Assembly: GCA_033763475.1 (NCBI GenBank)
Contig: JANRKM010000012.1
Location: 1-24,317, forward strand
Direction: 5' to 3'
From: Kofleriaceae bacterium
GTDB lineage: Bacteria > Myxococcota_A > Polyangia > Haliangiales > Haliangiaceae
DNA: 24,317 nucleotides
The notes beneath the pieces are model-generated. The model had not been told where the DNA came from. It searched no databases and saw only the letters and a program-made list of their open reading frames with translations. Below are positions 5,377-23,194 of this stretch, in pieces (position 1 is the stretch's first letter; each line of letters opens with the position of its first letter). Made by a program: the position numbers and the translations under genes.

Positions 5377-5493
5377 CGTGGTCACTCGTCGCATGTGTGG
5401 CGCTCGTGCAACGGCAACCAATGGCACCGCAGGTCGACGGCGAGATCACAGATGCACGGGTGCCTGGTGCGTAACTTGCTCGGGCACCGATCG

Positions 5494-6465
5494 ATGAAGC
5501 GTCGCGCGAGCGGAGTGATCCTCGCAGCGTGGCTCGTCGTGGGTTGCGCGAGGCAGCACCGCTACGTGAATCGCCCCGAGCAACCCGAGGAGGCCCTCGC
5601 CGCCGTCCAGCGCGAAGCGACCGAGCGCGGCCTGAAGCGCATCGGGCACCGTGCGTCGGCAGAGATCTATGTCGTCCCCGAACAGCGTGATCCGACGGGC
5701 TCACGATCCGTTTCGAGGGACGACGCGTCGTCGTGTACCGGATGGCCGTACTTCAGTCCCGAGCGATGTCTGTTCGTCCGTGCATTCCCGGCCACCGACG
5801 GTGGAAGCGTGGTCGAGATCGCGGGTGCGAACCTGGCGATCACCGAGGAGATGTTCCCCGGGGTACCGAGCCGGCGATTTGATCCCTTCCTCGTGCCACG
5901 CAAGCCGCTCGTCACGGACCTGAACATCCGCGTCGGAGTCGGGTCGTCATCGGAGAACGGCGTGTACCTCCGGATCGAGCCCGCGTTCTCCGTCGGCTGG
6001 CGAGTGCTCGAGTGGGGCGAGCGCTCGGCCCTCACGGGCGTCCGCACGGGCCTCATTCCTGGACTCGGCGTGGGCCTCGCCATGGATGCACGCGGCACCG
6101 CCCTGCGGCCAGAGCTCCACGTCGAGCTCGACCGGCAGCGCGCAGTCGATCCCGCCCCTGGCCGCACGATCCCACTCGGGCCCCGATCCGCTGTCGGGCT
6201 CTCGATCGCGGCGCTGATCGGCCTCGACGATGACCGTGGCGCGGTCGAGATTGGTGCGGACGCCCACGTCTGGCCGTGGGGCGGTGTGTTCGCGCGGGCG
6301 GGCTACGAGCTTCGATCGAGCTCGAACACGTACTTCGTGGCCGGGGTGCAGACCGACGGCGTCGCCACGGTGGTCGCCGCGGGCGTCTCGCTGCTGATCA
6401 TCGGCATCGTGTCGCTAGGTGACGTGGAGTGGAGCATTCCGTGCAGCCGATGTGAGAACCCGTAA
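5494..6465 (+). CDS. Hypothetical lipoprotein with a hydrophobic C-terminal segment. Track ORF 5395..6465; the start was chosen at ATG 5494.
   Basis: MKRRASGVILAAWLVVGCARQ gives a textbook lipobox, LVVGC. Strong GC3. The C-terminus VATVVAAGVSLLIIGIVSLG looks like a TM or anchor segment. Confidence 0.5.
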   Translation: MKRRASGVILAAWLVVGCARQHRYVNRPEQPEEALAAVQREATERGLKRIGHRASAEIYVVPEQRDPTGSRSVSRDDASSCTGWPYFSPERCLFVRAFPATDGGSVVEIAGANLAITEEMFPGVPSRRFDPFLVPRKPLVTDLNIRVGVGSSSENGVYLRIEPAFSVGWRVLEWGERSALTGVRTGLIPGLGVGLAMDARGTALRPELHVELDRQRAVDPAPGRTIPLGPRSAVGLSIAALIGLDDDRGAVEIGADAHVWPWGGVFARAGYELRSSSNTYFVAGVQTDGVATVVAAGVSLLIIGIVSLGDVEWSIPCSRCENP

Positions 6466-7386: not shown

Positions 7387-7735
7387 TTAGCGGTTCCGCT
7401 GGTGCAAGATGATCGAGTTTCCTTCGCTATCGAGGATGATGTCGCCCAGGAAGCGCACGCCCGCTGCCTGCAGCCGCCCAGGGGTGGCATCGAGGTCGCT
7501 CACCTGCCGTTCGGCGCCGCCAGCCCGCGCGTGAAGCCGAGCAGATCCATCGTAGAAGTTGCGCGCACGCTTCGGGTCCTCGACCTCGAACATCGTGAAC
7601 GCGACCTTCTGGAACTCTGGCTTCTTGGCCTTCGCCGGCTTGGCCTTCGCTCTCGGGGTGGCCTTCTTCGCGACCGCCTTGGTTTTGGGCTTCACCGCCT
7701 TCGCCCTCGTTACCTTCATCGCCATGCGAGGGGTG
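7387..7735 (-). CDS. Fusion of a histone-H1-like K/A/P-rich N-terminal region with a short VOC (glyoxalase/bleomycin-resistance-like) module. Track ORF 7387..8232; the start was chosen at MAMKV (7735).
   Basis: MAMKVTRAKAVKPKTKAVAKKATPRAKAKPAKAKKPEF is an H1/AlgP-like tail. It is followed by FTMFEVEDPKRARNFYDG...VSDLDATPGRLQAAGVRFLGDIILDSEGNSIIL, which carries the beta1-alpha1 and C-terminal DPxGN-like motifs of VOC domains. The part of the track ORF upstream of 7735 is antisense to the CdnL-like gene and was rejected. Confidence 0.5.
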
Positions 7736-7878
7736 ATACCACTCGAGGCGTGGAGCCCTTGGTCAAACCGGTGGTCTGTGCGTGTGGAGATCGCGCATTC
7801 GCGGTGCGCATCGCGTAGCAACGTCAACGCTTCGATCGCGGTGGCGAGGATCGCCGCCACGTCCGAGATGCGATATGG

Positions 7879-8817
7879 ATGGCCATGCTTCAGGTCGGTC
7901 AAGCCGTCGTGGTTCGAGGTCGTGGGCTCGGCACCGTCGCGAGTGTTCGCGATGACGCGATCATCGTTGCCGAACAGGATCTCGAACCGGGCGAGGAGAG
8001 CCAGTTCGAGATCCCGGTGGAACGTGCTGGCGACGCAATCCGCGCCGTCGCGACGCCGGGGGAAGCCGAGCGCGCGCTCGCGCTCATTGCGACGCGGCCC
8101 GAGCGCTTGCCCGCCGACGAACGCAGCATCGCGTATCGTCGTGCGTTCAAGCGCGGCGACCTCGACGAACAAGCGCGCATGCTCGCGGCGATGTATCGCG
8201 GTCCGGCCGAAACACCGGAGCGGCAGTACCAAGATCTCATTGAGCGAAGCGTTTTTGGCGAGCTGGCCCTCGTGCTCAACACTTCACGGAAAGCGCTGCG
8301 CGCACGGATTCGTGCGGCGGCCCTCGGGGAACCTCCACCCCGCTCACTAGGACTCGCCGATCGCGGGAACGAACTCGCGGCGGTCACGGTTCCGCCGATC
8401 GATGGCTTTGATGCGATCGGCGCGTTCGCGGTCGACGCGAAAATCGGGGTTGGCGAAGCGAATGCGGACGTCGTTCTACCGGCTGAACCTGGCATCTGGC
8501 TTGCGTATGCTGTGCGTGACGAGGACGCCGATGATTTTTCCGAGCTTGTGGCCGTCCACGTGACGCGGATCGGCGAGTTCGCAGAACTTCGTCGACGTGC
8601 GAAGAAAGCGGGCAAGGCTCCGTTCGAGGGCGCGCACATGTCGATCTTCGACGAAGCTGTCGTCGATGACCGCGAAGTTGTCGACCGTATGCTTCAAGCT
8701 GACTGCGAGATCGTTGATGGGCGTAGCGCGTCGCTCGGGCTCGGCGGCGACGGCATCGCAGAGGTTCGAGTTGCGCGCGATGGCGACCGCGCGATCTGCG
8801 TCCGTGTTCTCCTCTGA
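7879..8817 (+). CDS. CarD/CdnL/TRCF-family RNA-polymerase-interacting protein (a divergent CdnL paralogue) with an extra ~150-aa C-terminal domain, tentatively DUF4241-like
   Basis: The N-terminal ~160 aa align with CdnL. LQVGQAVVVRGRGLGTV matches FKTGDKAVYPGQGVGEV. RLPADERSIAYRRAFKRGDLDEQARMLAAMY matches TWNRRYREYMEKIKTGSVFEIAEVLRDLY. PERQYQDLIERSVFGELALVL matches the CdnL C-terminal helix. The C-terminal part (DGFDAIGAFAVD...GLGGDGIAEVRVARDGDRAICVRVLL) is an additional domain. Confidence 0.6.
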   Translation: MAMLQVGQAVVVRGRGLGTVASVRDDAIIVAEQDLEPGEESQFEIPVERAGDAIRAVATPGEAERALALIATRPERLPADERSIAYRRAFKRGDLDEQARMLAAMYRGPAETPERQYQDLIERSVFGELALVLNTSRKALRARIRAAALGEPPPRSLGLADRGNELAAVTVPPIDGFDAIGAFAVDAKIGVGEANADVVLPAEPGIWLAYAVRDEDADDFSELVAVHVTRIGEFAELRRRAKKAGKAPFEGAHMSIFDEAVVDDREVVDRMLQADCEIVDGRSASLGLGGDGIAEVRVARDGDRAICVRVLL

Positions 8818-8830
8818 GCCCAGACGCGTC

Positions 8831-9298
8831 CTACGCGGCGCGCTTGGCCGACGACGACGCAGCGCCCGCGAGGTCGAGTCGGCGCAGCGCATTGACGAGC
8901 TTCGGCATGTCTGCCTTGCCCATCAGCCGCCGCCACGTCTTCTCGGCCTCCATCGTTCCGGCGAGCGCCCAGCGCAGCGCCATCCTTCCGCTCTGCCACT
9001 TCGGCGGCGCGAGCGCGATCGCCGTCGCCTCCGATCGCAGCTCGTCGATCCGGACACACCGTGCGCGGAGGTGGACCTCGGCGAGCGGCTGGCTGCGCTC
9101 GCCCGCGATCTCGGTAAGCAGCGTGTGCCGAACCGGGTAGTAGACGCGTCCGGCTTGCTGGGTCTGCATGCGAACCGCACACGAGCCAAGGATCGCGAGG
9201 TGACGCGCTGCTTCGGCGATCCCGATCGCCCCCGTCTCGACCTCCGACGCCGGCACCGGCAAAGCGTGCGCGTGGACCCACTCGCCGTCGATGCTCAT
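8831..9298 (-). CDS. Hypothetical protein, 155 aa, family not recognised
   Basis: Strong GC3 coding bias on the minus strand. The overlapping plus-strand ORF 8597..9610 is Arg-rich noise. It is convergent with the CdnL-like gene. The 12-mer TATGCGCCCTTG lies 18 nt upstream of its start. Confidence 0.4.
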   Translation of the reverse strand: MSIDGEWVHAHALPVPASEVETGAIGIAEAARHLAILGSCAVRMQTQQAGRVYYPVRHTLLTEIAGERSQPLAEVHLRARCVRIDELRSEATAIALAPPKWQSGRMALRWALAGTMEAEKTWRRLMGKADMPKLVNALRRLDLAGAASSSAKRAA

Positions 9299-9566
9299 GC
9301 GATCGAGCGCGAAGTTATGCGCCCTTGCCGACCGATGTCGACGACGTCGAGCTGCAGCAACATCGCGAGAACCTCGAACACCGGCGAGCCCGCTGGGAAG
9401 TCGCGACGGTCGACGAGATCCTCGCGTACTACGCAGTGCCCGCGCGATCGCGCCCGAAGACCCCGTAGTACGCGTGCGTGGCGCACCGTAGGCGCTGACC
9501 GCTCGGTGCGCGTGCGCAACCTCGCGTGCGCTGACGCGCGGAGGCCCTGGGCGCGCGGCGCGACGC

Positions 9567-10448
9567 TTGCTCGCTGTGCCCTCCCGTGCACACCGTGCCG
9601 GCCGTCGTGATTGCGTCGCTGCTCGGCTCGGTCACGCACGCGGAGGAGTCACCACCGTTGCCTCCCCAGCCGCCTCCGGAGACACGCGCGGCTCGTACAC
9701 GGGCGGGTTGTGGGCGTGGGGCTCGATCGGCAGCTGGCTCCACTACCGCGCGATGATCGGCAACAACCTGAGCCAGTTCGGCGTAGACGCCGGTCAGCTC
9801 GACATGGGATTGCGCACGTATTCGGCTGCGGTGTGGTGGACGACGTCGAACTTCAACCTGTACGAAGCGTACGGCGACTTCGAGGGCCACAAGCACGTCG
9901 CCGCGAGCGTGGGTGCCGCATTCACGCAGAGCCGCGAGGATGCGCAATCGCAGCCCGGCACCAACGCGCCCGAGAACGTGCAGATCCGCGTGTCCGACGG
10001 CCGCGTGATCTTCGATCCCGATGCGTTCGGCCCGGGCACGCAGATCACGCGCGCGACCTACCGCATGCTCGCGATCGACGGCGCCGTGAAGCGGCACGGG
10101 CTCTCGCTCGAAGGCGAGTGGTACTACCGCTGGGTCGACGACCTCGTCGTCCTGGGGCCGGTGCCGTTCACGCATCTGCGCGACACGGGGTTCCAGCTGC
10201 AGGCTGCGGTGATGGTGCGGCCGAAGCAGGTGATGGTGTATGCCGCGGGCTCGAAGATCTTCGGCGAGTACGGAGATCCGTGGGACATCGGCCTCGGCGT
10301 GAACTACTACCCGTTCCACAACCGCGCGATGCGGCTGAACGGCGAGCTCATCATCGTCAACCGCTCCCCCGTCGGCAACCTCAACTCGCCGCTCGTCGTC
10401 GGTGCCGATGGCGTGATCGCCGTGGCCAACCTCGAGCTGTTCTTCTAA
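9567..10448 (+). CDS. Outer-membrane beta-barrel (porin-like) protein. The N-terminus is probably in another frame, with a signal-peptide-like segment at 9586..9680 in the +1 frame.
   Basis: Alternating amphipathic beta-strand patterns: GEWYYRWV, VMVYAAGSKIFG, WDIGLGVNYYPF, LIIVNRSP. The C-terminus ends ...VIAVANLELFF, a terminal-Phe barrel signature. The track frame has no signal peptide. The adjacent frame encodes VPAVVIASLLGSVTHA-EESPPLPPQPPPE, which would join TRGSYTGGLWAW... after a 1-nt indel near 9670–9690. Confidence 0.5.
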   Translation: MLAVPSRAHRAGRRDCVAARLGHARGGVTTVASPAASGDTRGSYTGGLWAWGSIGSWLHYRAMIGNNLSQFGVDAGQLDMGLRTYSAAVWWTTSNFNLYEAYGDFEGHKHVAASVGAAFTQSREDAQSQPGTNAPENVQIRVSDGRVIFDPDAFGPGTQITRATYRMLAIDGAVKRHGLSLEGEWYYRWVDDLVVLGPVPFTHLRDTGFQLQAAVMVRPKQVMVYAAGSKIFGEYGDPWDIGLGVNYYPFHNRAMRLNGELIIVNRSPVGNLNSPLVVGADGVIAVANLELFF

Positions 10449-10460
10449 CGGCGGCGTTCC

Positions 10461-12464
10461 TTATGGTTCGGCGTCGTCGCTCGGCGTGACGTCGAACGGC
10501 GAATCCGACTCGACCTCGTCGGCGTCGTAGTCCCCCGTGTCGGGGAGCCGGCCGCGCTTGTTGGAGCCGAAGCCACCGAGGGCGCCGAACATCCCGCCCG
10601 ACGGCGTGCACGCGGCGACGGGCGCGGCCGGTAGCGCGCGGGCGGATCTGCGCAGCGTGCTGAACGAATGCCGCGCGACGGTGCCGTCGGTGCGGCCGAG
10701 GTAGATGTGGTCGCCCGCGAACACGAGGGACGTGGTGTTGGGCGCGGGCATGACGTCTGCGGACGATGCGCCCGGGCTCCACGCGACCAGCTTGCCGTCG
10801 GCGATCGCCGTGACGACGTCGCGCCCGTTCCACGCGATGGCCCGGTCCTGCGTGGCCTCGTGCGGGAACGCGAGCGAGGCGACGGGCTTGCCGGTCGTGG
10901 CATCCAGCACGGTGATGCCGCGCTCGTCGATGAACGCGACCCGCGCGCCATCGGGCGAGATGGCCGGGCCTTTGCCGCCGCATTCGTAGGGTGCCTCGAC
11001 GACGACCCGACGCTCGATCGCGTCGGCGATCGTGAGTTTGCGCGAGCCGTACATCGCGACGCGACGCCCGTCCGGCGTGGCGGATGCGTGGGCGTCACTG
11101 GTGAGATCCTCCGCGGGCGCCTCGGTGGCCCAGCGTTGTTTCAGCGTCTCGTCGAGCACGAACAACTGGCCGCTCGCCGTGTACCAGACGCCCCCGCCGG
11201 CGACCGGGCCCAGCTCGCGCACGAGGAGGCCGAGGCCGGTCCGGTCAGCGGACAGCGCGACATGATCGATTCGCGTCGCGCCGTGCCAGCGCTCGAGCAC
11301 AGTCTTGTCCCGCGGACGCAGCGTGAGCGCGACCAGCGTGACCTCGTCGTTCGTCGCGGTCGCCAGCACGTCGCGCGCGGGCCCGCCGAGCTCGATGATC
11401 GGCCGCGCGGTCTCGGTCGACCAGATCCACGCAGAGCCGTCGCCGAACGAGTGGGAGACGAGCATGCGCCCCGCGACGTCGAGCTCACGCACCTCGCCGC
11501 GCGTTCCCTCGATCTCTGCGAGCGGCTTCCAGTCGGAGGTGCGCCACAGATGCAACACGTTGTCGTTGCCGCCGAGCGCGAGCAGGTCACCACGCGGCGA
11601 CCAGGCGAGCGTGCGCACGTATGCCTGCGAGCCGCGCAGCGTGGTGACGGGCTCGCCGCCGGGCAGCGCGACCACGCGCACTTCCTCCTCGCACGCGATC
11701 GCGAGCCGATCGCTGGCGGCGTTGATCGCGAGTGCGCCTGGATTGCAGCTGAACGGCACCGACGCGAGGGTCTTGCCGTCGTCGACGCGGTAGACGTCGA
11801 CCTCCCAGTGATCGTGCTTGCCCGAGAACGTGCCGACGGCCAGCAGCGCATGGTCGGGAGACAGCCCGTAGATGCTCGTGTTGCCGAGCGCGAAGATGCG
11901 ATGGCGCTTGCCGGTCGCGAGGTCCCAGATGCCGACGGTTTGCTGCGAGCGGCCTGCGACGACCCACGTGCCGACGATCTCCGGCGACGCGTAGTGCCGC
12001 GAGTGCTCGAGGGCGATGCCCGGCTTGCGACTCGCGAGGTCGAACACGGTGAGCGGGGTCCCCTCCTCGCCGCCGACCACCGCGCGCGTGCCGTCGGAGG
12101 CTACGCGCCTGGCTGCGACTGCGGTGAATGGCGTGGTCTTTCCCGTGCGGACGTCGACGACGACGGGCTTGTCACCGGCGAGGAGGAGCGACTGCGCATC
12201 GAGGAACGCCACGCCGCTGGTCCACGGGAGCAGGCCTTCGGCCACCACGCGGCGCCTGCCGGTACGATCGAACGCGACGACCGATCCGCCCGCGGTGGTG
12301 ACGATGACGTCGTCACCGTGAAACCCGATGTGCTCGAGCGAGCCCGGCACGCGCCACTCCTCGGCGCCGAATACGGCGGCCACCGGATCGCGCTCCGGCG
12401 ACGAGGTGACCTGCGCGCTACCGCACGCCAGTAGGGTCGTAGATACGACGACAGCTCGCAGCAT
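10461..12464 (-). CDS. Lipoprotein with WD40-type beta-propeller repeats. Track ORF 10461..12773; the start was chosen at MLRAVVVSTTLLACG (12464).
   Basis: Signal peptide with lipobox LLAC. Multiple WD-like repeats: LAWSPRGDLLALGGNDNVLHLWRTSD, VSHSFGDGSAWIWS, ALSADRTGLGLLV and others. Strong GC3. The overlapping antisense ORF 10668..12434 was rejected. Confidence 0.65.
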   Translation of the reverse strand: MLRAVVVSTTLLACGSAQVTSSPERDPVAAVFGAEEWRVPGSLEHIGFHGDDVIVTTAGGSVVAFDRTGRRRVVAEGLLPWTSGVAFLDAQSLLLAGDKPVVVDVRTGKTTPFTAVAARRVASDGTRAVVGGEEGTPLTVFDLASRKPGIALEHSRHYASPEIVGTWVVAGRSQQTVGIWDLATGKRHRIFALGNTSIYGLSPDHALLAVGTFSGKHDHWEVDVYRVDDGKTLASVPFSCNPGALAINAASDRLAIACEEEVRVVALPGGEPVTTLRGSQAYVRTLAWSPRGDLLALGGNDNVLHLWRTSDWKPLAEIEGTRGEVRELDVAGRMLVSHSFGDGSAWIWSTETARPIIELGGPARDVLATATNDEVTLVALTLRPRDKTVLERWHGATRIDHVALSADRTGLGLLVRELGPVAGGGVWYTASGQLFVLDETLKQRWATEAPAEDLTSDAHASATPDGRRVAMYGSRKLTIADAIERRVVVEAPYECGGKGPAISPDGARVAFIDERGITVLDATTGKPVASLAFPHEATQDRAIAWNGRDVVTAIADGKLVAWSPGASSADVMPAPNTTSLVFAGDHIYLGRTDGTVARHSFSTLRRSARALPAAPVAACTPSGGMFGALGGFGSNKRGRLPDTGDYDADEVESDSPFDVTPSDDAEP

Positions 12465-12886: not shown

Positions 12887-13012
12887 TGGAATAGCCAGAT
12901 GCGGCAACACGTTCCGATGAGTGTCGAAGGCCGCCGTCCGTGCGCTCGTGTCCGGGTGCTCCGACGCGCGTGGTACGTTCGCGCTTGCTCGCACACGTCA
13001 CCCGGGTAACCC

Positions 13013-14394
13013 ATGAGAAGCGTGCTCCTGTTCACGTCGCTGGTCCCCCTCGCCGTGGTGGATGCGGCAAGTCCGATTCGACACGGTCCGCCTCCCCCCC
13101 GGGCGCGACGAGCCCGGCCATCCCGTCGGCTGGGACCGCCGCGCCCGCGGCGCCCGCGGGCACGGAGCCGAGGTTCGATCCGGCGACGATGTGCGAGTCG
13201 CGATGCCTCCTTTTGACCCAGCATCCGCTGGGCAACCTGGCCTTCGGAAACAGCTACTGCAAGGCCTGCGGCGACCGCGATCCGAAGGCCTGCGAGGGTG
13301 TCACTCCCTTCTTCGATTCCAACAGCTGTGCGGAGGCCGACGAGCTCAGGAACTGCATCTACGCGGCCTACGGCAACCCCTTCAAGAAGCCCAAGTGGCA
13401 GAAGCACTTCGCCAAGGAGCCTTGGTACAAGCCGAACCCCGCGTTCGACGAGTCCATGCTCTCCAAGGTCGCGCGGCAGAACGTCACGGAGCTGAAGAAG
13501 CTGGGGTGCACCGCGGTGCGCGCGAAGGCCAACGACGGCACCCCCGCGCATCCGTTGAACGAGCGCGGCGGCTGGAGCCTGCGCGAGGATCTCGACGGCG
13601 ACGGGATGCCGGAGAGCATCGAGGCCGAGAAGGCGCAGCTTCGCGTCGGGGAGCGGACGACCGAGACCGGGCTCGAGTCGTGGGACTACGAGAACGGCGA
13701 CATCTTCATCGTCGACCTCGACCGGTCCGACAAGCTGCGGGAGGTCGCCATCCTCAGGCGCGGCGACGACGACTACGCGGAGACGACGTTCTACCGCTAC
13801 GCCGACGGGAAGCTCTGGTCGTTGGGGGCCGTCGAGAACTGGGTGCAGCCCGGCGAGCTCGCGGGCGACGGCACGGTGAGCGAGACGTCCGGGCAGTGCG
13901 GCGTCACCCTCGTCGTGCGGTACGCGATCAGGAAGGGGGAGCTTCAGGAGATCGAGCGCAATGAGACGGGCAAGCGAGAGCCCGACTGCGAAGAGTCGGC
14001 GTGCCCGCACGTCTTCGTCGCGCAGGCGGACGGTCGTTTTCGCTACGTCGGCGAGATCCTGCGTGACCTCGTCGGATCCTCCGCGCGCGCCCGTCAGGCG
14101 CTGCCCCTGGCTGCGGCCGACGCCCATGACGGGAAGATCGTCGTGCGGATCTCCGAGCGCGAGAGCGAGACCACGTTCCTCGACGACATCTACCTGTCGG
14201 TAGGTGGCGTCCGAGTCGCGCCGAGCGCGTGTGCAGCGGGTCCCTCACCGTCGCCCCCCGCGGAGTGCGTGTCGGATGGGCTCATGCGACGCCTCGAGTA
14301 CGGCGACGACTTGCTCCTCGAGTTCATGGTCGGCCGTGTGCCCCACCGTGCCGAGGTGACGCTCTGGGGCACCGGCTACTATGTGCGGCGGTAG
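13013..14394 (+). CDS. Secreted YARHG-domain protein. A frameshift at a C7 homopolymer (13094–13100) separates the signal peptide from the body.
   Basis: MRSVLLFTSLVPLAVVDAAS (ORF 13013..13216) is a signal peptide. With one extra C in the C7 run it continues in frame as GPPPPPGATSPAIPSAGTAAPAAPAGTEP...MCESRC… (ORF 12940..14394). LRNCIYAAYGNPFKKPKWQKHFAKEPWYKPNPAFDESMLSKVARQNVTELKKL matches the YARHG domain consensus (lRNeIyARhGy.F....w...F....WY.pn). Confidence 0.6.
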
Positions 14395-15070
14395 CGTGCC
14401 CGGCACGGCTTCCGCGACCGCGGGGCGTGTCCGCGGTGGGCTCACCCTCATCCTCGTGGCGTGGATCGTCGACGCGATCGCCGGGGGAGCGCTCCGCACC
14501 GCGGAGCACGTCCTCCTCGCGGAGTTTCACGCGCACCCCGAGAGCGTGGCGCATCCGTCGTCCTGGTTTCCCGTCATCGATGCCGGGCAACTGGCGATCT
14601 ACCTCGCGGTCACGGTCATGCTGTGCGTCGGGATCGCTCGGATCGCCGGGCCACGTGAGTCGTCCCTCGGCGCCGGCGTGGCACGTGCCGCCGCCACGCT
14701 CCTCGTGGTCGACGCCGTCGCGGGCACCATGTGGCCGAGCGTCGCGGCCCGCATCCTCTCCGTCGACGCGATGATCAGCGCGATGCGCGTCGCCGGAATC
14801 GTCGGCGTGCTCAGCCGCGGCACCGCGCTCGTGTTGCTCGCGCTCTTGCTCCGGGTGGGGGCGCGACGGATCGGGCGCGACGTCGACACGCTCTCCTCTG
14901 CGACCGTTGGGTTGGTGGTCGTCAACTCGATCGTACGGTGGCAGATGAGCTCGCTCGAGACGCCGCTCGTTTGGGTGCTCCTCGAAGTGACGTGCGCCGG
15001 TGTGGCGCTGCTCTTCGTCTTGATCACCGTGCGGCTGCGGCGCGCCCTCGCCGCGACCCCCGGCACGTAA
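14381..15070 (+). CDS. Hypothetical polytopic membrane protein with about 5–6 TM helices. The start may be GTG 14396.
   Basis: Successive hydrophobic segments: LTLILVAWIVDAIAGGAL, LAIYLAVTVMLCVGIARIAG, AAATLLVVDAVAGTMW, VAGIVGVLSRGTALVLLALLL, VWVLLEVTCAGVALLFVLITV. The antisense ORF 14324..15214 is Arg/Asp-rich noise. Confidence 0.45.
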   Translation: MCGGSVPGTASATAGRVRGGLTLILVAWIVDAIAGGALRTAEHVLLAEFHAHPESVAHPSSWFPVIDAGQLAIYLAVTVMLCVGIARIAGPRESSLGAGVARAAATLLVVDAVAGTMWPSVAARILSVDAMISAMRVAGIVGVLSRGTALVLLALLLRVGARRIGRDVDTLSSATVGLVVVNSIVRWQMSSLETPLVWVLLEVTCAGVALLFVLITVRLRRALAATPGT

Positions 15071-15131
15071 GCTGGATACGCCGCGTTCGAGCTCGTCCAA
15101 CCGCGGCCGCAGGGCGCCTGAAGACGAGGTC

Positions 15132-15687
15132 ATGATGAACTCTCCGAACAGAATTCTCCCGGTCTTGGTGCTGGTCGTTGGCTGCTGGAGGCAGGGGGGC
15201 CGGTTCGCGCCCAACGCCGAACGCGCCCGCAGCGGGGGGCGAGCGCGTCGAGCCGACCCTCCTCGAGCCCGGTGACCGTGTGCGCGTCGACCTCGACGCG
15301 GACGGCACTGCCGAGTTGGTCGAGCTCGATGCGGCCGGCCAACTGCACATCGATGGACAGGCCATCACGTGCCGAGGCGCGCTGACCCACGAGCTCATCG
15401 ACTTGGATCCGAGGGACCCGCTCATGGAGGTGTGGGCCTACGCCGAGCTCGGCGACGACGATTGGGTGAACTGCTACTTCACGAAGGCCGGAGGGGGCGT
15501 CGACCAGCTGGAGCTCGCGCGGACGGAGGTCGACGATGAGGGCCGGATCCTAGACGCCGGCACCTGCTACAGCCCGCCCGGCGCCTACCGACACACGGCC
15601 AAGGGGTTCGAGGCCGTCAAGGACGCCGAGGCCGTCGGCGAGTTCGAGCCGGGAGCCGACTGTTGCGAAGGCCCCGACTGTCCGTGA
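15132..15687 (+). CDS. Lipoprotein with a frameshift at a G6 homopolymer (15194–15199). Cys-containing C-terminus …GADCCEGPDCP.
   Basis: ATG 15132 encodes MMNSPNRILPVLVLVVGC, a lipobox VVGC, in frame 0. The body (track ORF 15178..15687) is in the +1 frame. Deleting one G from the G6 run joins them as ...VVGCWRQGAGSRPTPNAPAAGGERVEPTLLEPGDRV…. Confidence 0.45.
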
Positions 15688-16480: not shown

Positions 16481-17509
16481 TCAACGTGGGTTGGCGACGC
16501 TGGCGATGAAGAGGCGCGCGCCGTTCACCCCGGGTAGCTCGAGCTCCTGGGGCTGCGGTCCTTCGGTCATCAGCTGGGAGAGGCGGTTCGTCAGGGGCTC
16601 GATCGCCTCCGGCGGTAGGAAGATCACCGCGCCGCGCATTCCTTCTCGCTTCTCGATCGACCACCCGGCCGGGCCGGGGCGGAAGCAGACGAGCGAATCG
16701 CCGCTGCGTGGTCCTCCGAACAGAACCATCTCCTCGCCGTGACGGACGCGGTGCTTGATTGCCATCAGCAGATCGGGGATGCAGGCTAGGTCGACGTGGA
16801 TGTCCAGCCGCTTGCCCCGGACCAGCCCCCCGTGCACCTCCCAATGCAGCGGAAGCTGGCCGCGCATACCGACCGACGCCGCTCTGCTCGCCATCGCTCG
16901 CTCCATGTCGACGAGGAAGCTCGCGTCGGCGAGGAAGCTGGGGCGTCCCGCGATCGTCTGCAGCAGCGGATCGCGCGCCCTCATCAGGTCGGAGAACGCG
17001 AGCACGTCCCATGATCGCGCCGTGTCGTGTTCGGCCACGTTCACGCCGACCATCTGCAGGTAGCCATGGTTGCCGTTGCGGGATCGGGTGGGGGCGAGCC
17101 CGACGTCCTCCACGAAGAGCACGTTGCAGATTTCATCGCGGGTAGCCGGCGCGACCAGCGGCATGCAATGCCCGGAACCGATGAAGGTCTCGGTCGTCGC
17201 CAGGTAATCGCGGATGCCTTGCATCCAGTGGAGCACCCATCCGAAGTCGAGCTGCGCCTCGACGGCGGGGATCCGACAGCTGAGCTCGAAGCCGAAGCCG
17301 GACACGTCGGGGTCGTCGGACTCCTTGTCCCAGAGCTCGGTGAAGCCCTGGCTGACCACCAGCCAGTGCGGGCTCGGCGCGCTCACGTGGACCGCCACCG
17401 CGCCGTTTAACGGCTCGGCCCCCTCGACCGGCGCGCACAAGACGATCTCCGCGCCCGGGTGCGCGGCGCGCACGCTGTTCTCCAGGGCGTCGAAGGGGTC
17501 CACGGTCAT
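16481..17509 (-). CDS. SUFU (suppressor-of-fused) family protein, bacterial type. These are frequently immunity proteins of polymorphic toxin systems.
   Basis: HVSAPSPHWLVVSQGFTELWDKESDDPDVSGFGFELSCRIP…WVLHWMQGIRDYL matches the bacterial SUFU core (HYVTYGLSELY.KESDDPE.SGFGFELTFRL…LARYVF). It is a clean 342-aa ORF with good GC3. Confidence 0.6.
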   Translation of the reverse strand: MTVDPFDALENSVRAAHPGAEIVLCAPVEGAEPLNGAVAVHVSAPSPHWLVVSQGFTELWDKESDDPDVSGFGFELSCRIPAVEAQLDFGWVLHWMQGIRDYLATTETFIGSGHCMPLVAPATRDEICNVLFVEDVGLAPTRSRNGNHGYLQMVGVNVAEHDTARSWDVLAFSDLMRARDPLLQTIAGRPSFLADASFLVDMERAMASRAASVGMRGQLPLHWEVHGGLVRGKRLDIHVDLACIPDLLMAIKHRVRHGEEMVLFGGPRSGDSLVCFRPGPAGWSIEKREGMRGAVIFLPPEAIEPLTNRLSQLMTEGPQPQELELPGVNGARLFIASVANPR

Positions 17510-17608: not shown

Positions 17609-18010
17609 TCAGCGGGCGCAGTTGAAGACCGCTTCGCACGCCGGGGTCGTGAGTGGATCGCAGGGGCTATTCACCGCGTCGTAGCAGTCGTGGAACTGCC
17701 CGACGGTGAGCGTGCAAGTGAAGCCCAGCAGCGCGCTGGTGCACTCCGCGACCGTACTGACGGTCACGGTCACGTTCCCACTGCATGTCTCCGACGCGCC
17801 GGGGCCGCCCGCCTGGTCGAGCGAGTAAGTACACAGGGCCTCCGCTTCGGCCTGTGTGAGGTCGGACAGCCGCTTGTTCGGGTCGACGGAAACGCCGGAG
17901 TCGATCACCGACCCGAACGCGCTGCAGCTCGCGCCGCAGGCGCCGCCAGCGATGTCGGCGCACGTATTGGTCTCGAGACAGGTCGCACACTCCGACAGCG
18001 CGCGCTCGGC
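17609..18010 (-). CDS. Cys-rich coding segment with 14 Cys in ~130 aa, and no identifiable start codon or signal peptide. It lies immediately upstream of the SUFU gene on the same strand.
   Basis: Strong GC3 bias in this minus frame: ...SECATCLETNTCADIAGGACGASCSAFG…CDPLTTPACEAVFNCAR*. The in-frame region upstream of ~18010 is Arg-rich and overlaps the 18130 membrane-protein gene. No alternative frame carries a signal peptide. Confidence 0.3.
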   Translation of the reverse strand, partial: AERALSECATCLETNTCADIAGGACGASCSAFGSVIDSGVSVDPNKRLSDLTQAEAEALCTYSLDQAGGPGASETCSGNVTVTVSTVAECTSALLGFTCTLTVGQFHDCYDAVNSPCDPLTTPACEAVFNCAR

Positions 18011-18129
18011 GTTTATGCGCTCGGGGCTCGCGTGCCCGGATCGCGATCGAGGGAGCCTGCGCGGTGGCGAGCGGCTCACCGGCTGAATGTATCGGGCACC
18101 CACGGGCCGGACTTCGCTACAACCCGCGG

Positions 18130-18781: not shown

Positions 18782-19807
18782 CTACGGCGTCGGCGGCTTC
18801 GACGGGTCGACGGTAAACGTGCCGATGTCCGTCGTCTTGCCCGCCTCGAGCGCGAGCCCTTTCATCAACGCGGGCGACGGCTGCGTCAGCACCACGAGCA
18901 CCGATGGGCCGGCCTTGGTCTCGATGCGGAATGAACCATCCGCGTTGGACATCGGCGGCATCCCCTCGAGAGAGATCCGCGTGCCGCCATCGGGGGTCGC
19001 GGGGATCACGATCACGCCGGTGTCGCCGAGCGGTTTGCCCTGCGCGTCGACGAGCTTGCCCACCACCACGGCGTTGGCGACGAGCACGATGTCGCGCTTC
19101 GCCGCCTGCCCCGCGACCACGGTGACCTTGGCCTCGGCGTTGCCGTCGCTGGAGCGCACGCGCAGCGTGTAGTCACCCGGATCGACGCGGCCGAGCTTGA
19201 AGGTGCCGCCGGTGAACGTGCGCGTCGTCTTCGTCGGGCCTTCGACGTCCAGCGTGAACAGCGCGACCGGCCCCTGGGCTCCGGTGACCGTGCCCGACAG
19301 CGACGTGACGCCCACGGCCTGGATCGCGAGCTTCGCGTCGGGCTCGACGCCGAGCTTGCGCCCACGCAGCGCGCCCTGTTGCGCCTCGGCGATCACCTCG
19401 TACTTCGCGTGCGGCAGGTTGCGCACCGCGAACCGGCCCTGCGCATCGGTGAGCACCGGCGGAAATTCACCGCCCTCGCTGCCCTCACCGTCGTCGCTCG
19501 TCGTGACGTGCGTCATCCGCGACGAGGACTTCTGCTCGCCATCCTTCTTCGCCCTCTGCTCCGCGGCTTCCTCTTCCTCGACCATGCCGCGGAGGAGCGC
19601 CTCGAGATCCTGATGCACGGAGACCCAGGCGTCGGCGAGCGGCTGTCCGTCGGGGCCGGTCACCACACCTTCGATCACGCCATTCGGAAGATCGTTCCTT
19701 AAGGATAAGACGAACAAGACCGCTTTCGGGCCGCGAGCGGTTCGCCACGGGGAGCGTCCTGGTGGCAGATCGCTCGTCACCGATGCCACGAACGTCATGC
19801 AGCTCAC
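18782..19807 (-). CDS. Protein with three carboxypeptidase-regulatory-like (CarbopepD_reg_2 / transthyretin-like) domains and an acidic insert. The start is uncertain and no signal peptide is seen.
   Basis: Repeated motifs GVVTGPDGQPLADAWVSV…TDAQGRFAVRNLPHAKYEV, GTVTGAQGPVA…GDYTLRV and GKLVDAQGKPLGDTGVIV…SNADGSFRIE. The insert is EEEEAAEQRAKKDGEQKSSS. There is a low-GC patch (19690–19730) inside the annotated 5' end. Confidence 0.55.
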   Translation of the reverse strand: MSCMTFVASVTSDLPPGRSPWRTARGPKAVLFVLSLRNDLPNGVIEGVVTGPDGQPLADAWVSVHQDLEALLRGMVEEEEAAEQRAKKDGEQKSSSRMTHVTTSDDGEGSEGGEFPPVLTDAQGRFAVRNLPHAKYEVIAEAQQGALRGRKLGVEPDAKLAIQAVGVTSLSGTVTGAQGPVALFTLDVEGPTKTTRTFTGGTFKLGRVDPGDYTLRVRSSDGNAEAKVTVVAGQAAKRDIVLVANAVVVGKLVDAQGKPLGDTGVIVIPATPDGGTRISLEGMPPMSNADGSFRIETKAGPSVLVVLTQPSPALMKGLALEAGKTTDIGTFTVDPSKPPTP

Positions 19808-19880
19808 GCTGCGTGCAGTCGTTCGTGCGGCGTCGCGCAGACCCGTCCGCTCGTCGAGCGGCGGTTGGCTCGGAGGCGCG

Positions 19881-20114
19881 TCAGCATCCCAGGTCGAGCT
19901 CGCCCTGCGCGGGCTCGGGTGGCGCGCGGGCCGCGGCGAGCCGTGGAGGGTCGGAGCGGATCCCGAGGTGCTCGAGGATGGCGGTGGTGACGGTCGGGGC
20001 GGTCAGGAAGGCCAGGACGCGGAGCTGATCGTCGCAGCGCGGACAGCGAGTGACGTCGTCACCGAACACGCGGCGCAGCAGGGCTGCCCAGTCGAGGCGG
20101 TAGGCTGGGCGCAC
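19881..20114 (-). pseudogene. C-terminal zinc-ribbon fragment of a transposase (IS family not determined). It is a remnant of only 77 codons.
   Basis: DWAALLRRVFGDDVTRCPRCDDQLRVLAFLTAPTVTTAILEHLGI matches the conserved C-terminal tail found on many bacterial transposases (…LLRRVF.VDVL.CP.CGGRMR…I..IL.HLGL). No catalytic domain is present upstream. Confidence 0.4.
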
Positions 20115-20248
20115 AACACGAGCACGGGACGCGCGCGAACGTATAGTGGGAAGTCGTCGAACAGGTTTGGCGTCACCTGCGCAGTATCCTTCGCGCTCCG
20201 CCCCGAGACGCCTGCGGCCTAGCCGAAAGTCGCAACGACGGACAAGCT

Positions 20249-20620
20249 GTGCGCGTCAGGATCGGTTGGGATGGTTCCGCCAATGCTCTGGCGTTCGCGA
20301 CCGACAATTTGCTGCAGTCATCCGAGAGCGTTCACGACATGGACATGCTCCATGACTTCATGTGGCTGGTGCGCACGGCCGGCGCTCTCAAGGTCGTCGT
20401 GCACGGTTTCAGTACCCCGGGCTTCATCAAGCCCGCCGAAGCCGATCAGTATCTCGCGTCCGTGTTGCAGGCCAGCGGCAGCGCACCGGACTCACACGGC
20501 AGCGAGTCGCTGGCAAACCTCGAAGGCCTCACCGACCGCCAGATGTTGCGCTCGGCTATCGCGCACGCGTCGACGGACATCAGATCGTCCTCCACTTCTC
20601 TCGCCCACTCCACGATGTGA
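20249..20620 (+). CDS. Hypothetical small protein in a lower-GC island. GTG start, 123 aa, family not recognised.
   Basis: GC3 of about 75% in this frame, with a clean stop. Local GC is lower than the flanks, consistent with foreign DNA. Confidence 0.25.
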   Translation: MRVRIGWDGSANALAFATDNLLQSSESVHDMDMLHDFMWLVRTAGALKVVVHGFSTPGFIKPAEADQYLASVLQASGSAPDSHGSESLANLEGLTDRQMLRSAIAHASTDIRSSSTSLAHSTM

Positions 20621-20735
20621 CGTTTACGCACACGGTGACAGTGTGACCTGGCTCGGCGTGCAGGCACAGCTATCTCTCTCGGTCCGGGCCCGCCGCTCGC
20701 AACTCGACACCGAGCTGGCCGATGTGCTGGCGCGG

Positions 20736-21056
20736 CTACCTACCGGTCATCGTGCGGAACCGACGCCACGCTCGACGCCACGGACGAGCCCAAACATAGA
20801 CGCGCAAGTAGTGCTCGATCGGAAAGCCCGTACCGCTGATCCAGAGATGGCCATCGACGCGGTCAACGAACAACGGTGCATTGCCGATCAGGCCGTGGTC
20901 GCGGTCACCAGTCTCGACGAACTGGCGCGTGTTGTAGAAAAATACCCAGCCCCACCGTCGTTCGATCGTATGTCGGTCGACGATCACGACGTCATGTGTG
21001 CTTGTAGCGCGCAAGTGGCTCTCAGCGATGAAACGCGCCTCGTCGTGAGTCAGCAT
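20736..21056 (-). CDS. Imm35 / YrhB-family immunity protein, an orphan immunity gene of polymorphic toxin systems. The track ORF 20736..21779 was trimmed to start at MLTHDE.
   Basis: MLTHDEARFIAESHL…DVVIVDRHTIERRWGWVFFYNTRQFVETGDRDHGLIGNAPLFVDRVDGHLWISGTGFPIEHYLRVY matches YrhB/Imm35 hallmarks (GWVFFY…; LAGNAPIIVDK.DG…TGTA.P.E.Y). The region has lower GC. The upstream part of the track ORF is Arg-rich and antisense to the integrase remnant. Confidence 0.7.
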   Translation of the reverse strand: MLTHDEARFIAESHLRATSTHDVVIVDRHTIERRWGWVFFYNTRQFVETGDRDHGLIGNAPLFVDRVDGHLWISGTGFPIEHYLRVYVWARPWRRAWRRFRTMTGR

Positions 21057-21339
21057 GGCGTCGACGACTATACTCTGCGCGCGGGCGCGACTCGGCTCGC
21101 GGCTTCGTGCTCGTGGAAACGGTTGCGACGCTTCTCGGGGCCAGCGTCGAGGAGAGCCCGGCACGCGAAAGCGGATAAGCGAATCGATGGATCGCGAGGC
21201 GCTGGTCCGCGTGCACACCGGTCCCGGTTCGTGGTGGCTGTCGAGCCACAAGACCATGCGCCGAGGTCGCGCGTCGATGCGCGAGGCCAAGCTGAGATAT
21301 CCGAGGTTTCGGGTGCCGATCGGCGACTCGAGGGATCCG

Positions 21340-22117
21340 GAGGCCTGAATTTCTGGGGAACGATTTTTCCCTCGACGGTGCCTTTCCGCATCCGCGGCCG
21401 CACGCGTGATCCGAAGACGCGCGAACGGCGCGAGGTGAACCGCGCGCTCCCTGACTGCAAGCGCGCAAGCGAGGCCGCGGCGATCGCGCGTGCCGAGCTT
21501 GCGAAGATCGCTGCGGGCGAGGCGCCCGTGCAGACGTCTGCACTGCGGTTCGCGGACTGGGCCGTAACCGTCCTCGAGCGCAAGCTCGCGATCGGCGCGA
21601 TCGTCAGCGCCGCGGGCCACGCGAAGTGGGATTGGGCGCTGCGCGTGCACCTGATTCCGGCGTTCGGTCAGATCCTTGTCGACAAGCTCACACGCGCCGA
21701 GCTCGTTGCGCCCGCTGCGCGCGCGGCGAGCTCGCGGATGTGAAGTGGGATGACGGCCTGTTGCTCGTGCGGCGCTCACACACGCACCGTAACGAGGTGA
21801 TGGACGAGACCAAGACCGGACGCGACCAGGTGATCGCGCTCGACCAGCGCCAGCTCGAGATCCTGCGCTGGCATGTCGCCGAGCTCGAGCGCGACAACGC
21901 GCGGCGGGCGAAGCGCCACCCCGCGGCCGCGGAGACGATGGCGGCGAGCGAGCTGCTGTTTCCGGCGATGCCTACGAAGTGGAACCACGGGGGCGGCTTC
22001 CGGTCGCCCTCGTGTCTCGAACGTGCGTTCCAGGCCGTCTCCGCGGCGCTGGGGCTCGCGTACGAGGTGACCCCTCGGGCGATGCGTCGGACCTACCGCA
22101 GCGCTCGCGAAAAGTGA
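21340..22117 (+). pseudogene. P4-like tyrosine recombinase (integrase) remnant. The N-terminal DUF4102 / SAM-like part is in frame 0 (to 21743). The catalytic-domain piece is in frame 2 (21700–22117). There is a ~400-nt internal deletion, and the terminal Tyr region is missing.
   Basis: The N-terminal part reads GLNFWGTIFPSTVPFRIRGRT…RASEAAAIARAELAKIAAGEAP then FADWAVTVLERKL…HLIPAFGQILVDKLTRAELV. The catalytic piece reads ELADVKWDDGLLLVRRSHTHRNEVMDETKTGRDQVIALDQRQLEILRWH…ELLFP…EVTPRAMRRTYRSA (R…K…[HxxR]-like), with a stop before the catalytic Tyr. The combined length is about 780 nt, against about 1200 nt for an intact gene. Confidence 0.55.
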
Positions 22118-22186
22118 CCCGCCTCTGCTCGTCGAAAATGACCCACCGAGCTTCGGTGGAGTACGTCGGCGATCGTCGCGGGCGTT

Positions 22187-22651
22187 GTGCAGAAGAAGCG
22201 CCCGTGTTCGATCTGCGGTTGCTGGTTCTCGACTGACGTTCGCGTAGGTCAGCGCCAGCGCACCTGTGGGAGCGACGCGTGTCAGCGCGAGTTGCATCGT
22301 CGAGCAGATCGACGGTGGCGCGCCAAGAATCCCAGTTACGACAGAGAGCGCCGCATGGGCGCGCAGCTCGAGAAGGCGCGAGCGGCAGCTACGGCGAAGG
22401 CGGCGGGGCTGCCGGTCGATAGCGCCGCAGTGCCGCCGTCACCGCATGCACCTGCGCCGACCTCCGGATTGCCCTGGGACCTCGTGCAAGACGAGATGGG
22501 GGTGGAAGCTCGTGTAATCATTTCGGGAGTGACGGGAGTTCTCGGGGTGTACGTGCAAGATGAGATACGTCGTCAAGTCCGCGATGTTGTTCCGGGAGTA
22601 GCGGGAGTTCTCGGCGGTAGCGCGCAAGACGAGATGGCCCCGGGAGGGTAG
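22187..22651 (+). CDS. Possible small Zn-ribbon protein (RPCSICGCWF…RTCGSDACQRELHRR). Its C-terminal half is encoded by 69-bp tandem repeats. The coding status is uncertain.
   Basis: GTG-start ORF with four Cys arranged CxxC…CxxxxC. The repeat-encoded peptide is VQDE(M/I)…GV(T/A)GVLG(V/G). GC is reduced across the repeats. The call is weak. Confidence 0.25.
   Translation: MQKKRPCSICGCWFSTDVRVGQRQRTCGSDACQRELHRRADRRWRAKNPSYDRERRMGAQLEKARAAATAKAAGLPVDSAAVPPSPHAPAPTSGLPWDLVQDEMGVEARVIISGVTGVLGVYVQDEIRRQVRDVVPGVAGVLGGSAQDEMAPGG
22483..22651 (+). repeat. About 2.45 copies of a 69-bp tandem direct repeat. The unit is cgtgcaagaYgagat…YcgggagtRRcgggagttctcggSgg.
   Basis: Unit 1 is 22483–22551, unit 2 is 22552–22620 and the partial unit 3 is 22621–22651. 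About 70% identity between full units, with conserved motif blocks at both ends. Confidence 0.6.
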
Positions 22652-23194
22652 AGGCAGCAGCGTGGCGGCGTGGAGATCGATCTGCATCAGCTCGCGTCGA
22701 CCTTGGCGCGCATGAGGTCCTTCGCGTAGCGGAGGACGATGTCGTCGTAAGGCTGGTTGTCGAGACGGCTTTACCACTCTCGCGAGGTCCCTCCTGTGTT
22801 CACGGTCGGAGAGACCGTGTCGAAGCGCACCTTCAAGGAGGACAAGCTCGCCAAGATCTACGACGCGGAGAGGTCACTTTCGCCGCTCTGGTCGCGGCAC
22901 TTCGGGCGGACGCTGCTCCGGGACCTCGTCATTCCGCCGCAGGCGATGGTGCTCGACACCACGTGGAATCGGAGACCGGCGTGCGCGTGGGCAACGGTCA
23001 GGTAACGCTGAGCTACCGGCCGTAGCTCAACCTCCAGCGCTCGCCTGGCTTGAAGCGATGGCGCGGAGCAAGCGCAGGAACGCCGGGTAGCGGCGCAGTG
23101 ATGATATGCCGCGACGACCGTCACCTCCGGAAGCGCGCAGACTCTGCGCGAACGAAGACGCGTGTGCTCGTCGCTGGCATGCCATGATCGACGC

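Follow-up and report, generated by a model that had tools for sequence, protein, structure and literature searches.

Single-base indels arise most readily at homopolymers, which are also the usual site of platform indel errors, and in Neisseria the repeats of pilC (poly-G/C) and opa (CTCTT) lie in the signal-peptide region. It is well documented that homopolymer indels break up gene calls (PMC9262707); phase variation of Neisseria pilC proceeds by poly-C tracts in the reading frame, and the PhasomeIt cut-off for phase-variable G tracts in that genus is G≥9 (PMC5953494). The window, by which we mean the whole stretch of DNA analysed here, spans all 24,317 bp of one contig from an NCBI MAG with the label “Kofleriaceae bacterium” (genome G+C, 68%); judging from locus-tag numbers under the prefix SFX73, only about 110 genes precede it. 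Two of its lipoprotein genes, separated by one intact gene, each have the signal peptide in one ORF and the body in a second, differently framed ORF; this split had been stated in the preliminary description, and translation of the ORFs bears it out. The features of the first gene are as follows.

13013–13060, + strand: gene 1 signal-peptide segment, MRSVLLFTSLVPLAVV, in a frame offset by one base from that of the body (ORF list, translation)
13052–13062, + strand: predicted break of gene 1, with one base missing from GCCGTGGTG^GA, or two extra
13063–13065, + strand: gene 1 lipobox Cys codon TGC, in the body frame and aligned with the lipobox Cys of homologues P0002–P0009
13060–14394, + strand: gene 1 mature part (Pfam, homologues, NCBI product)
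13094–13100, + strand: C7 run, read in the body frame as TCC CCC CCG (Ser-Pro-Pro in the tether); not the break

ATG 13013, the first start codon after the in-frame stop, opens a 67-aa ORF (MRSVLLFTSLVPLAVV...) whose frame differs from that of the YARHG ORF at 12940–14394; read from the sequence, GC3 in the signal-peptide frame up to 13060 is 15/16. The mature part is laid out as a tether, a YARHG domain (Pfam PF13308, body residues 85–147, E=1.4e-12, 47.8 bits against a gathering score of 27 bits), a central domain resembling gene 2, and a further domain at the C-terminus. The in-frame start GTG 12940 was rejected, as it gives no hydrophobic segment, and in the deposit the gene is called only from TTG 13213 (MDX2086308.1, 393 aa). 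Lipoprotein signals were judged by sequence pattern (positively charged N-terminus, hydrophobic core, [LVI][ASTVI][GAS]C), and gene 1 fits the pattern only after a one-base repair, as MR-SVLLFTSLVPLAVVGC. All 12 full-length homologues recovered (P0002–P0009, L007, L009, L010, and L011) are intact lipoproteins, and identities to gene 1 of 34–37% over the full length were seen among homologues. The lipobox Cys is aligned in 8 of 8 homologues P0002–P0009, and it is also present in loci L007, L009, L010, and L011, with lipoboxes LFGC, LLGC, VLAC, or MSAC. The description of these neighbors as exported proteins holds for both, but gene 1 is a lipoprotein like gene 2 and not a generic secreted protein.

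The split of gene 1 had been assigned to the C7 run. The run exists, as does the G6 run at 15194–15199, and it is also true that lengthening C7 to C8, or shortening this G6 to G5, fuses signal peptide to body. These repairs are not unique, however: a single-base insertion at any of 203 positions (13013–13215) fuses gene 1, and deletion of any one of 138 bases (15136–15275) fuses gene 2. A homopolymer able to repair a split gene thus need not be the place where it broke, and for gene 1 the place was found by homology, through the lipobox Cys. Up to and including 13051 the hydrophobic core must be read in the signal-peptide frame, since the body frame would put Arg-Arg at 13051–13056, and the Cys codon at 13063 is already in the body frame upstream of C7; therefore the missing base is predicted to lie within 13052–13062, and not in C7. 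The Cys codon is 29 nt upstream of the run, and the break would fall 32–48 nt before it. Moreover, the codon likelihood has its maximum at 13061–13070, while under a general codon model a join at C7 falls behind the best join by 7.2 natural-log units and behind the lipobox join by 4.7; under a tether-composition codon model it scores −8.0. A join at the C5 run at 13045–13049 was also tried and rejected; it gives LVPPRRGGC, with no usable lipobox, and scores −9.3. From sequence and alignment, then, the predicted break of gene 1 is firmly placed just 5′ of the lipobox Cys codon, and the assignment to C7 fails. With one base restored, the gene would read MRSVLLFTSLVPLAVV-G-C and then GKSD (...PLAVVGC/GKSD), for example through GTGGTGGGATGC at 13055–13065. 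Since the break is outside C7, neither a homopolymer miscall nor slipped-strand switching at that run explains gene 1.

Downstream of gene 1 are the intervening gene and gene 2.

14381–15070, + strand: intervening intact gene, hydrophobic, probably a membrane protein (ORF, GC3 0.88)
15132–15185, + strand: gene 2 signal peptide with lipobox, MMNSPNRILPVLVLVVGC, from an ATG with a GAGG Shine-Dalgarno-like motif 4 nt upstream
15187–15687, + strand: gene 2 mature part (homologues P0012, P0014, and P0015; NCBI product)
15186–15275, + strand: interval within which the one surplus base of gene 2 must fall, 1–90 nt 3′ of the Cys codon
15194–15199, + strand: first G6 run, body frame AGG GGG GCC
15234–15239, + strand: second G6 run, body frame GCG GGG GGC (Ala-Gly-Gly)

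The intervening gene has no Pfam match and belongs to no known family. Its start is uncertain, the 229-aa product from ATG 14381 differing from the deposited product in an exact look-up, and its accession is presumably MDX2086309, going by the run of accession numbers. The order lipoprotein–membrane protein–lipoprotein is not common to the homologues of genes 1 and 2, and in homologous locus L003 the gene upstream is unrelated to the membrane protein of the window.

Gene 2 encodes a small Cys-rich lipoprotein with the C-terminal end CCEGPDCP. ATG 15132 opens a 47-aa ORF (MMNSPNRILPVLVLVVGC...) in a frame other than that of the body (15178–15687), and this ORF fits the lipoprotein pattern directly (MMNSPNR-ILPVLVLVVGC); the same LVVGC lipobox is found in the intact lipoprotein at 5494–6465. 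An in-frame start for the body was sought and rejected, there being stops at 15133–15138 and only TTG 15178 after them; in the deposit the gene is called from GTG 15280 only (MDX2086310.1, 135 aa). Gene 2 is paralogous to the central domain of gene 1 (E=9e-5). No Pfam model covers the paralogue family (P0012, P0014, and P0015), and an AF2 model of gene 2 (pLDDT 78.7) has no PDB match with E<0.07. Homologues P0012 and P0014 both carry the signal peptide and the lipobox Cys in frame. In gene 2 the Cys is read in the signal-peptide frame, which reaches a stop at 15273–15275, so the extra base must lie within 15186–15275. The preliminary description put it in the first G6, which is plausible as one of three candidate sites; the second G6 had been overlooked, and the third candidate is T15186, whose removal gives C-G-G-R where gene 2 homologues read C-G-G-S/K after the lipobox Cys. 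Taken in the order T15186, first G6, second G6, the scores are −3.5, −3.0, and −0.7 in the general codon model and 0, −1.6, and −6.2 in the tether-composition model. The models disagree: the general one favors the second G6, while the tether model, together with the +2 residue of the homologues, favors a site just after the Cys.

With signal peptide and body each intact in a frame of its own, it could be argued that the sequence is correct and that expression itself brings the two frames together, through programmed ribosomal frameshifting (−1 in gene 1, +1 in gene 2) or transcriptional slippage; CCC-CCC-C could in principle permit a tRNA-Pro slip. We regard this as already close to refuted. 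The sequence has no X XXY YYZ heptamer at 13052–13062 and no known +1 motif at 15183–15200, the two genes would need shifts in opposite directions, and the homologues are all encoded in one frame, so that the two-frame arrangement is not conserved. A shift at C7, moreover, would skip the conserved lipobox Cys, and the runs fall far short of the 9 or more A/T bases at which transcriptional slippage typically occurs.

Slipped-strand phase variation, in which the G6 runs of gene 2 and a short run in gene 1 would toggle lipoprotein export within the population, had been offered as one of two possible causes, the other being sequencing error. It has some attractions: G6→G5 at either 15194–15199 or 15234–15239 restores gene 2, the first of these runs trails the best join by only 1.6–3.0 log units, depending on the model, homopolymers readily gain or lose single bases, the 5′ location recalls classic contingency loci, and the undecayed bodies are what a reversible switch would be expected to leave. 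We nevertheless consider it unlikely, as it shows none of the testable hallmarks (tract length, enrichment, homologue tracts). With the gene 1 break outside C7, switching of this kind could apply to one gene of the pair at most. Tract-length cut-offs for phase variation are somewhat lower in species other than Neisseria, and C7 is at best borderline for a hypermutable tract. Both C7 and G6 are shorter than the G≥9 that PhasomeIt applies to Neisseria (PMC5953494). The runs are not enriched either, with 9 G6/C6 words against 12.8 ± 4.5 expected from dinucleotide shuffles and 1 G7/C7 word against 3.2 ± 2.2. Nor do the homologues carry such tracts, a check that had been suggested: they are in frame, but within their first 240 nt the homologue genes of loci L001–L004 contain no run of at least 6 bases, and L003 has only a G5 at the aligned Ala-Gly-Gly of the second G6. 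In our view, C7 and the G6 runs simply follow from the Pro and Gly codons of the tethers at 68% G+C, and are not switches. We know of no precedent for phase variation in Myxococcota. Were the frameshifts real and reversible, an uncultured Kofleriaceae would be switching the export of two paralogous surface lipoproteins through very short G runs or micro-repeats beside the lipobox. This would be contingency-locus behavior in a free-living, high-G+C, non-pathogen lineage from which none is known, and we hold it to be very improbable.

The most likely explanation, and one in which we have middling confidence, is that both breaks are non-programmed errors of the draft consensus rather than real alleles. 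Genes 1 and 2 would be ordinary paralogous lipoprotein genes, each with a signal peptide, a lipobox Cys, a disordered Pro/Ala/Gly tether, and folded domains, and the MAG consensus would have put each one base out of frame in the signal-peptide/lipobox/tether stretch, gene 1 being one base short 5′ of the Cys codon and gene 2 having one base extra 3′ of it. Such lesions could be miscalled indels, or could come from an assembly path that joined strain variants chimerically where these genes evolve fastest, and the organism itself would make both lipoproteins normally. Sequencing error, one half of the original proposal, is still live, as is assembly error. Every full-length homologue of either gene has an in-frame signal peptide and lipobox; the bodies are undecayed, with open ORFs, GC3 of 0.84–0.87, and conserved columns kept; and both signal-peptide ORFs retain a start codon, hydrophobic core, and lipobox. 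A single break with no decay is the appearance of an error or of a very young lesion. Both breaks, moreover, lie where the gene is least constrained: homologue tethers vary freely in length and sequence, and it is there that indels between strains, and with them chimeric assembly paths, would be concentrated. Also in keeping with a faulty consensus are the absence of switch hallmarks, the runs being neither enriched nor present in homologues, and the fragmentation of the MAG, which fits a draft and presumably short-read bin.

What counts against an error is the quality of the rest of the contig, together with a gene 1 break that is not at a homopolymer. Across 10 kb of confident ORFs, no frame breaks were found at 15 runs of at least 5 bases or at 2 runs of at least 6, and PGAP flagged no pseudogenes among 15 consecutive genes; errors are therefore not widespread in the contig, and a pair of them only 2.2 kb apart or less exceeds the expectation from a uniform low error rate. 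A GC3 frame plot with HMM segmentation, tried for pinning the breaks and counting other frameshifts, proved too coarse, and such a plot misleads here in that the high Pro/Ala/Gly content of tethers raises GC at codon position 2 and that at least one ORF judged protein-like by eye, at 7879–8817 and with no Pfam match, has weak GC3. Elsewhere in the window, the ORFs at 20223–22117, recombinase-like by eye, gave nothing in a Pfam search.

The otherwise accurate look of the contig, with 15 runs of at least 5 bases unbroken and no pseudogene flags nearby, favors real indels instead. The two paralogous lipoprotein genes of the cluster would then be present in the sampled population as recent null alleles, young pseudogenes that are either fixed or polymorphic. 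Indel errors are rare in a short-read consensus, two functionally linked paralogues could be lost together, and the gene 1 lesion lies in GTGGTGG, a micro-repeat of the sort that allows small slips in replication. We think this possible but doubtful, and we would say the same of its corollary that the signal peptide is translated alone, with each body either not synthesized or synthesized but not exported. No more decay is seen in the 1.3-kb and 0.5-kb bodies or in the intervening gene, and random inactivating indels would rarely both strike the signal-peptide/lipobox boundary (11 nt of a 1.38-kb gene; 90 nt of a 0.56-kb gene). A related strain with the allele, or any second copy of the locus, was not found: protein searches gave the deposit itself and relatives of at most 42% identity, exact-product look-ups gave none, a scan of a genome collection gave distant YARHG proteins only, and two metagenome DNA scans were without a match. 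The locus tag and accessions of the locus were not found in the literature.

In any case, the public record masks both breaks, MDX2086308.1 and MDX2086310.1 being called as truncated, signal-less proteins, and a localization prediction made from that record would misclassify two lipoproteins as cytoplasmic. The biological import is small, and the case is an ordinary one. If the indels were real and heterogeneous, they would be a first hint of switchable surface lipoproteins in Myxococcota, but nothing here supports that.

Set against the known systems, the locus resembles translational phase variation of the pilC/opa kind in its 5′ change of frame, its exported or surface proteins, its neighboring paralogues, and its nearby G/C runs, but its tracts are 6–7 bases against at least 9, are neither enriched nor conserved, and in gene 1 do not include the site of the break. 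Like young frameshift pseudogenes of surface proteins, each gene has a one-base indel, a truncated product, and an ORF that is otherwise intact; unlike them, both lesions sit exactly at the signal-peptide/lipobox/tether boundary, with no secondary decay. From the gene-fragmenting indels of draft, long-read, or metagenome assemblies the locus differs in a gene 1 break off the homopolymer and in 15 other unbroken runs of at least 5 bases, which do not fit the pervasive long-read error pattern, but it shares with them the one-base split, the undecayed gene, the intact homologues, and the truncated calls (393 aa and 135 aa). Finally, although its nearest homologue among the Myxococcota YARHG lipoproteins (PF13308) is only 36–37% identical, gene 1 as repaired shares with the 12 homologues a signal peptide, a lipobox Cys, and a Pro/Ala/Ser-rich tether.

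The two split genes carry a signal peptide and a long coding body in different frames. In gene 1, which encodes a YARHG-domain lipoprotein, a 67-codon ORF from ATG 13013 (starting MRSVLLFTSLVPLAVV) stands out of frame with the long ORF 12940-14394, which holds the YARHG domain (PF13308, 47.8 bits, E=1.4e-12). In gene 2, which encodes a small Cys-rich lipoprotein, a 47-codon ORF from ATG 15132 (starting MMNSPNRILPVLVLVVGC, with a GAGG motif 4 nt 5′ of the ATG) is out of frame with the body at 15178-15687. The preliminary description was right about both splits, about the presence of a C7 run at 13094-13100 and a G6 run at 15194-15199, and about the fusion of each signal-peptide/body pair by C7 to C8 or G6 to G5. 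These tracts are no special solution to the split: gene 1 regains a full-length ORF starting at its signal-peptide ATG when one base is inserted at any of 203 positions (13013-13215), and gene 2 does so when any one of 138 bases (15136-15275) is deleted. In the public annotation both genes start internally, so that the frameshifts are hidden and the signal peptides lost; no pseudogene label is attached to either:

13213-14394 (+), gene 1 product MDX2086308.1, 393 aa, PGAP start at internal TTG 13213
15280-15687 (+), gene 2 product MDX2086310.1, 135 aa, PGAP start at internal GTG 15280

PGAP locus tags and protein accessions run in register from SFX73_00560 (MDX2086299) to SFX73_00630 (MDX2086313), and thus none of these 15 consecutive genes carries a pseudogene flag. 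The window is the entire 24,317-bp contig (68% G+C) of the NCBI metagenome-assembled genome "Kofleriaceae bacterium", locus-tag prefix SFX73, and the deposit's own products from it were matched at 99-100% identity; no second assembly of the same population was found in the protein, genome or metagenome collections searched. The 11 confident ORFs (10 kb; exact NCBI products, or a Pfam domain match inside one frame) contain 15 runs of at least 5 bases, 2 runs of at least 6 bases and no frame break. Hence the contig is not obviously error-prone in general, a control limited by the orphan sequence without Pfam matches that makes up much of the remainder. Real, very recent null alleles would be consistent with an otherwise clean contig, but they require a positional coincidence, and we regard them as possible rather than likely. 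In the stretches 4400-5400, 7400-9600, 19700-21400 and 22100-23100 the coding signal in GC3 is weak and Pfam gives no match; at least one ORF within them, 7879-8817 (+), resembles a real protein by eye, so that codon usage varies along the contig and frames called from GC3 cannot be relied on there. The contig has no tRNA. Among its other genes, three further lipoprotein-like ones are intact:

694-1080 (-), lipoprotein-like gene, MRALHAIASLALVASLAPSTGC
1138-2136 (+), ORF with a major-vault-protein shoulder domain (PF11978, E=1.4e-20)
2133-2744 (-), Uma2-family endonuclease gene (PF05685, E=1.1e-28), convergent with the vault-shoulder ORF
5494-6465 (+), lipoprotein-like gene, MKRRASGVILAAWLVVGC, LVVGC lipobox identical to that of gene 2
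10461-12464 (-), lipoprotein-like gene, MLRAVVVSTTLLAC, WD40 beta-propeller
14381-15070, ORF between genes 1 and 2, intact, hydrophobic product of no known family
16481-17509 and 17609-18043 (-), SUFU-domain protein (PF05076, E=1.7e-17) and Cys-rich ORF

The SUFU-domain gene lies directly 3′ of the Cys-rich ORF, for which none of the frames shows a signal peptide; the arrangement is reminiscent of toxin/immunity pairs and would be a candidate for one. ORFs 20223-21743 (+) and 21455-22117 (+) overlap in different frames near 21700 and show recombinase-like motifs by eye, with no Pfam match even when joined by hand; the overlap could reflect a further break of frame or the degenerate remains of a mobile element.

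Full-length homologues of gene 1 share 34-37% identity, with alignment over the whole length in P0002-P0004 and over the central and C-terminal parts in P0005-P0008. All begin with a signal peptide and a lipobox cysteine (slash after the cysteine: AIAC/SKDD, ALGC/KGQ, TVGC/GRD and LTGC/AAP, for example), as do four further gene-1-like loci in the genome collection (LFGC/GGKK, from another Kofleriaceae metagenome-assembled genome, LLGC/GGGT, VLAC/AVG and MSAC/AGG). Gene 2 (15132-15687) is a paralogue of the gene-1 central domain (13600-14040; E=9e-5 over 169 residues). Its family, by exhaustive HMMER search, is small: P0012 at 42%, P0014 at 36% and the fragment P0015, a tiny and unannotated set. 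Both full-length relatives are lipoproteins (AAAC/GGSK and VVAC/GGKQ, respectively), and full-length members share six conserved cysteines and end in CCEGxDCP. AF2 predicts an all-beta fold for gene 2 (pLDDT 78.7), and no PDB structure matches it at E<0.07.

The location of the gene-1 break follows from the conserved cysteine. Past the signal peptide the body frame reads G-G-C-G-K-S-D-S-T-R-S-A-S-P-P, and its cysteine codon, TGC 13063-65, aligns with the lipobox cysteine of all homologues and sits 29 nt 5′ of C7; the body frame is therefore established before the tract. The hydrophobic core lies in the other frame to at least 13051, since the body frame reads Arg-Arg there, which together with the cysteine places the lesion within 13052-13062 (GCCGTGGTG^GA). 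It is either one missing base (giving ...PLAVVGC/GKSD) or two surplus ones (giving ...PLAVGC/GKSD); a VVGC lipobox is common to repaired gene 1, gene 2 and the intact lipoprotein at 5494-6465. When all possible joins were scored by codon usage trained on the confident contig ORFs, the maximum fell at 13061-13070, and the C7 join trailed the best join by 7.2 natural-log units and the lipobox-preserving one by 4.7; a second model, combining homologue tether amino-acid composition with contig synonymous codon usage, gave the C7 join -8.0. Even allowing for the far higher prior rate of indels in homopolymers, the cysteine and the likelihoods make it very probable that C7, put forward in the preliminary description, is not the gene-1 break site.

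For gene 2, the signal-peptide frame contains the cysteine codon TGC 15183-85 and stops at 15273-75, so that one surplus base must lie in 15186-15275. This interval also includes a second G6 run (15234-15239), overlooked in the preliminary description, 35 nt 3′ of the first.

Candidate surplus bases in gene 2, with mature N-terminus and scores under the general codon and tether models
T15186: C-G-G-R-G-A-G-S...; general -3.5; tether 0
G6 15194-99: C-W-R-Q-G-A-G-S...; general -3.0; tether -1.6
G6 15234-39: C-W-R-Q-G-G-R-F-A-P-N-A-E-R-A-R-S-G-G-E...; general -0.7; tether -6.2

The G6 run first cited is thus one of three candidates; the two models prefer different ones, the general codon model scoring G6 15234-15239 highest. 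The cysteine is followed by G, A, S or K in 14/14 homologues and by W in 0/14. A one-base change in G6, by mutation or error, is far likelier than insertion of a T between the C and the G. The chances that a G6 run is involved are roughly even.

Nor are the G/C tracts special. Against dinucleotide-preserving shuffles no enrichment of G/C runs was found on the contig (G6/C6 words, 9 observed versus 12.8 +/- 4.5; G7/C7, 1 versus 3.2 +/- 2.2). Read in the body frames, the runs encode Ser-Pro-Pro (C7), Arg-Gly-Ala (G6 15194-99) and Ala-Gly-Gly (G6 15234-39); they are Pro/Gly codons of the low-complexity tethers, in a genome rich in GC3. In the first 240 nt of the homologue genes at L001-L004 there is no run of at least 6 bases, and the gene-2 homologue L003 has G5 at the aligned Ala-Gly-Gly. 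Slipped-strand phase variation, one of the two causes that had been proposed, fails on the site of the break in gene 1 and on the length, enrichment and conservation of the tracts; for gene 1 the tract-based reading is refuted. Switching confined to gene 2 is unlikely, its tracts being 6 bases long against a cut-off of at least 9 for Neisseria G/C tracts (PMC5953494), and no testable hallmark of a repeat-driven switch was found. Programmed frameshifting is more improbable still, to the point of being negligible: no slippery motif was found, the two genes need opposite shift directions, and the two-frame arrangement is not conserved in homologues. A programmed feature is not evident at either gene, and the split of both is ordinary.

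Each gene has a single one-base lesion and is otherwise undecayed; the paralogous bodies keep their conserved residues and a strong codon bias, and both lesions fall in the least constrained stretch, comprising signal peptide, lipobox and tether. The undecayed genes, this location, the fragmented genome and the missing switch hallmarks make a non-programmed consensus error the favoured reading, with about an even chance of being correct. Such error would include a chimeric assembly path through strain variants in fast-evolving stretches, which would account for the position of both breaks.

In Neisseria pilC and opa the repeats lie in the signal-peptide region, and the likeness to genes 1 and 2 is limited to the 5′ position of the break. 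The pilC gene varies through poly-C tracts (PMC5953494); the parallel breaks down over the site of the gene-1 lesion and over the length, enrichment and conservation of the tracts. The closest likeness is to the gene-fragmenting indels of draft assemblies, in which homopolymer indels break up gene calls (PMC9262707), from which the present case departs in having its gene-1 lesion outside any homopolymer, on a contig that is clean elsewhere.
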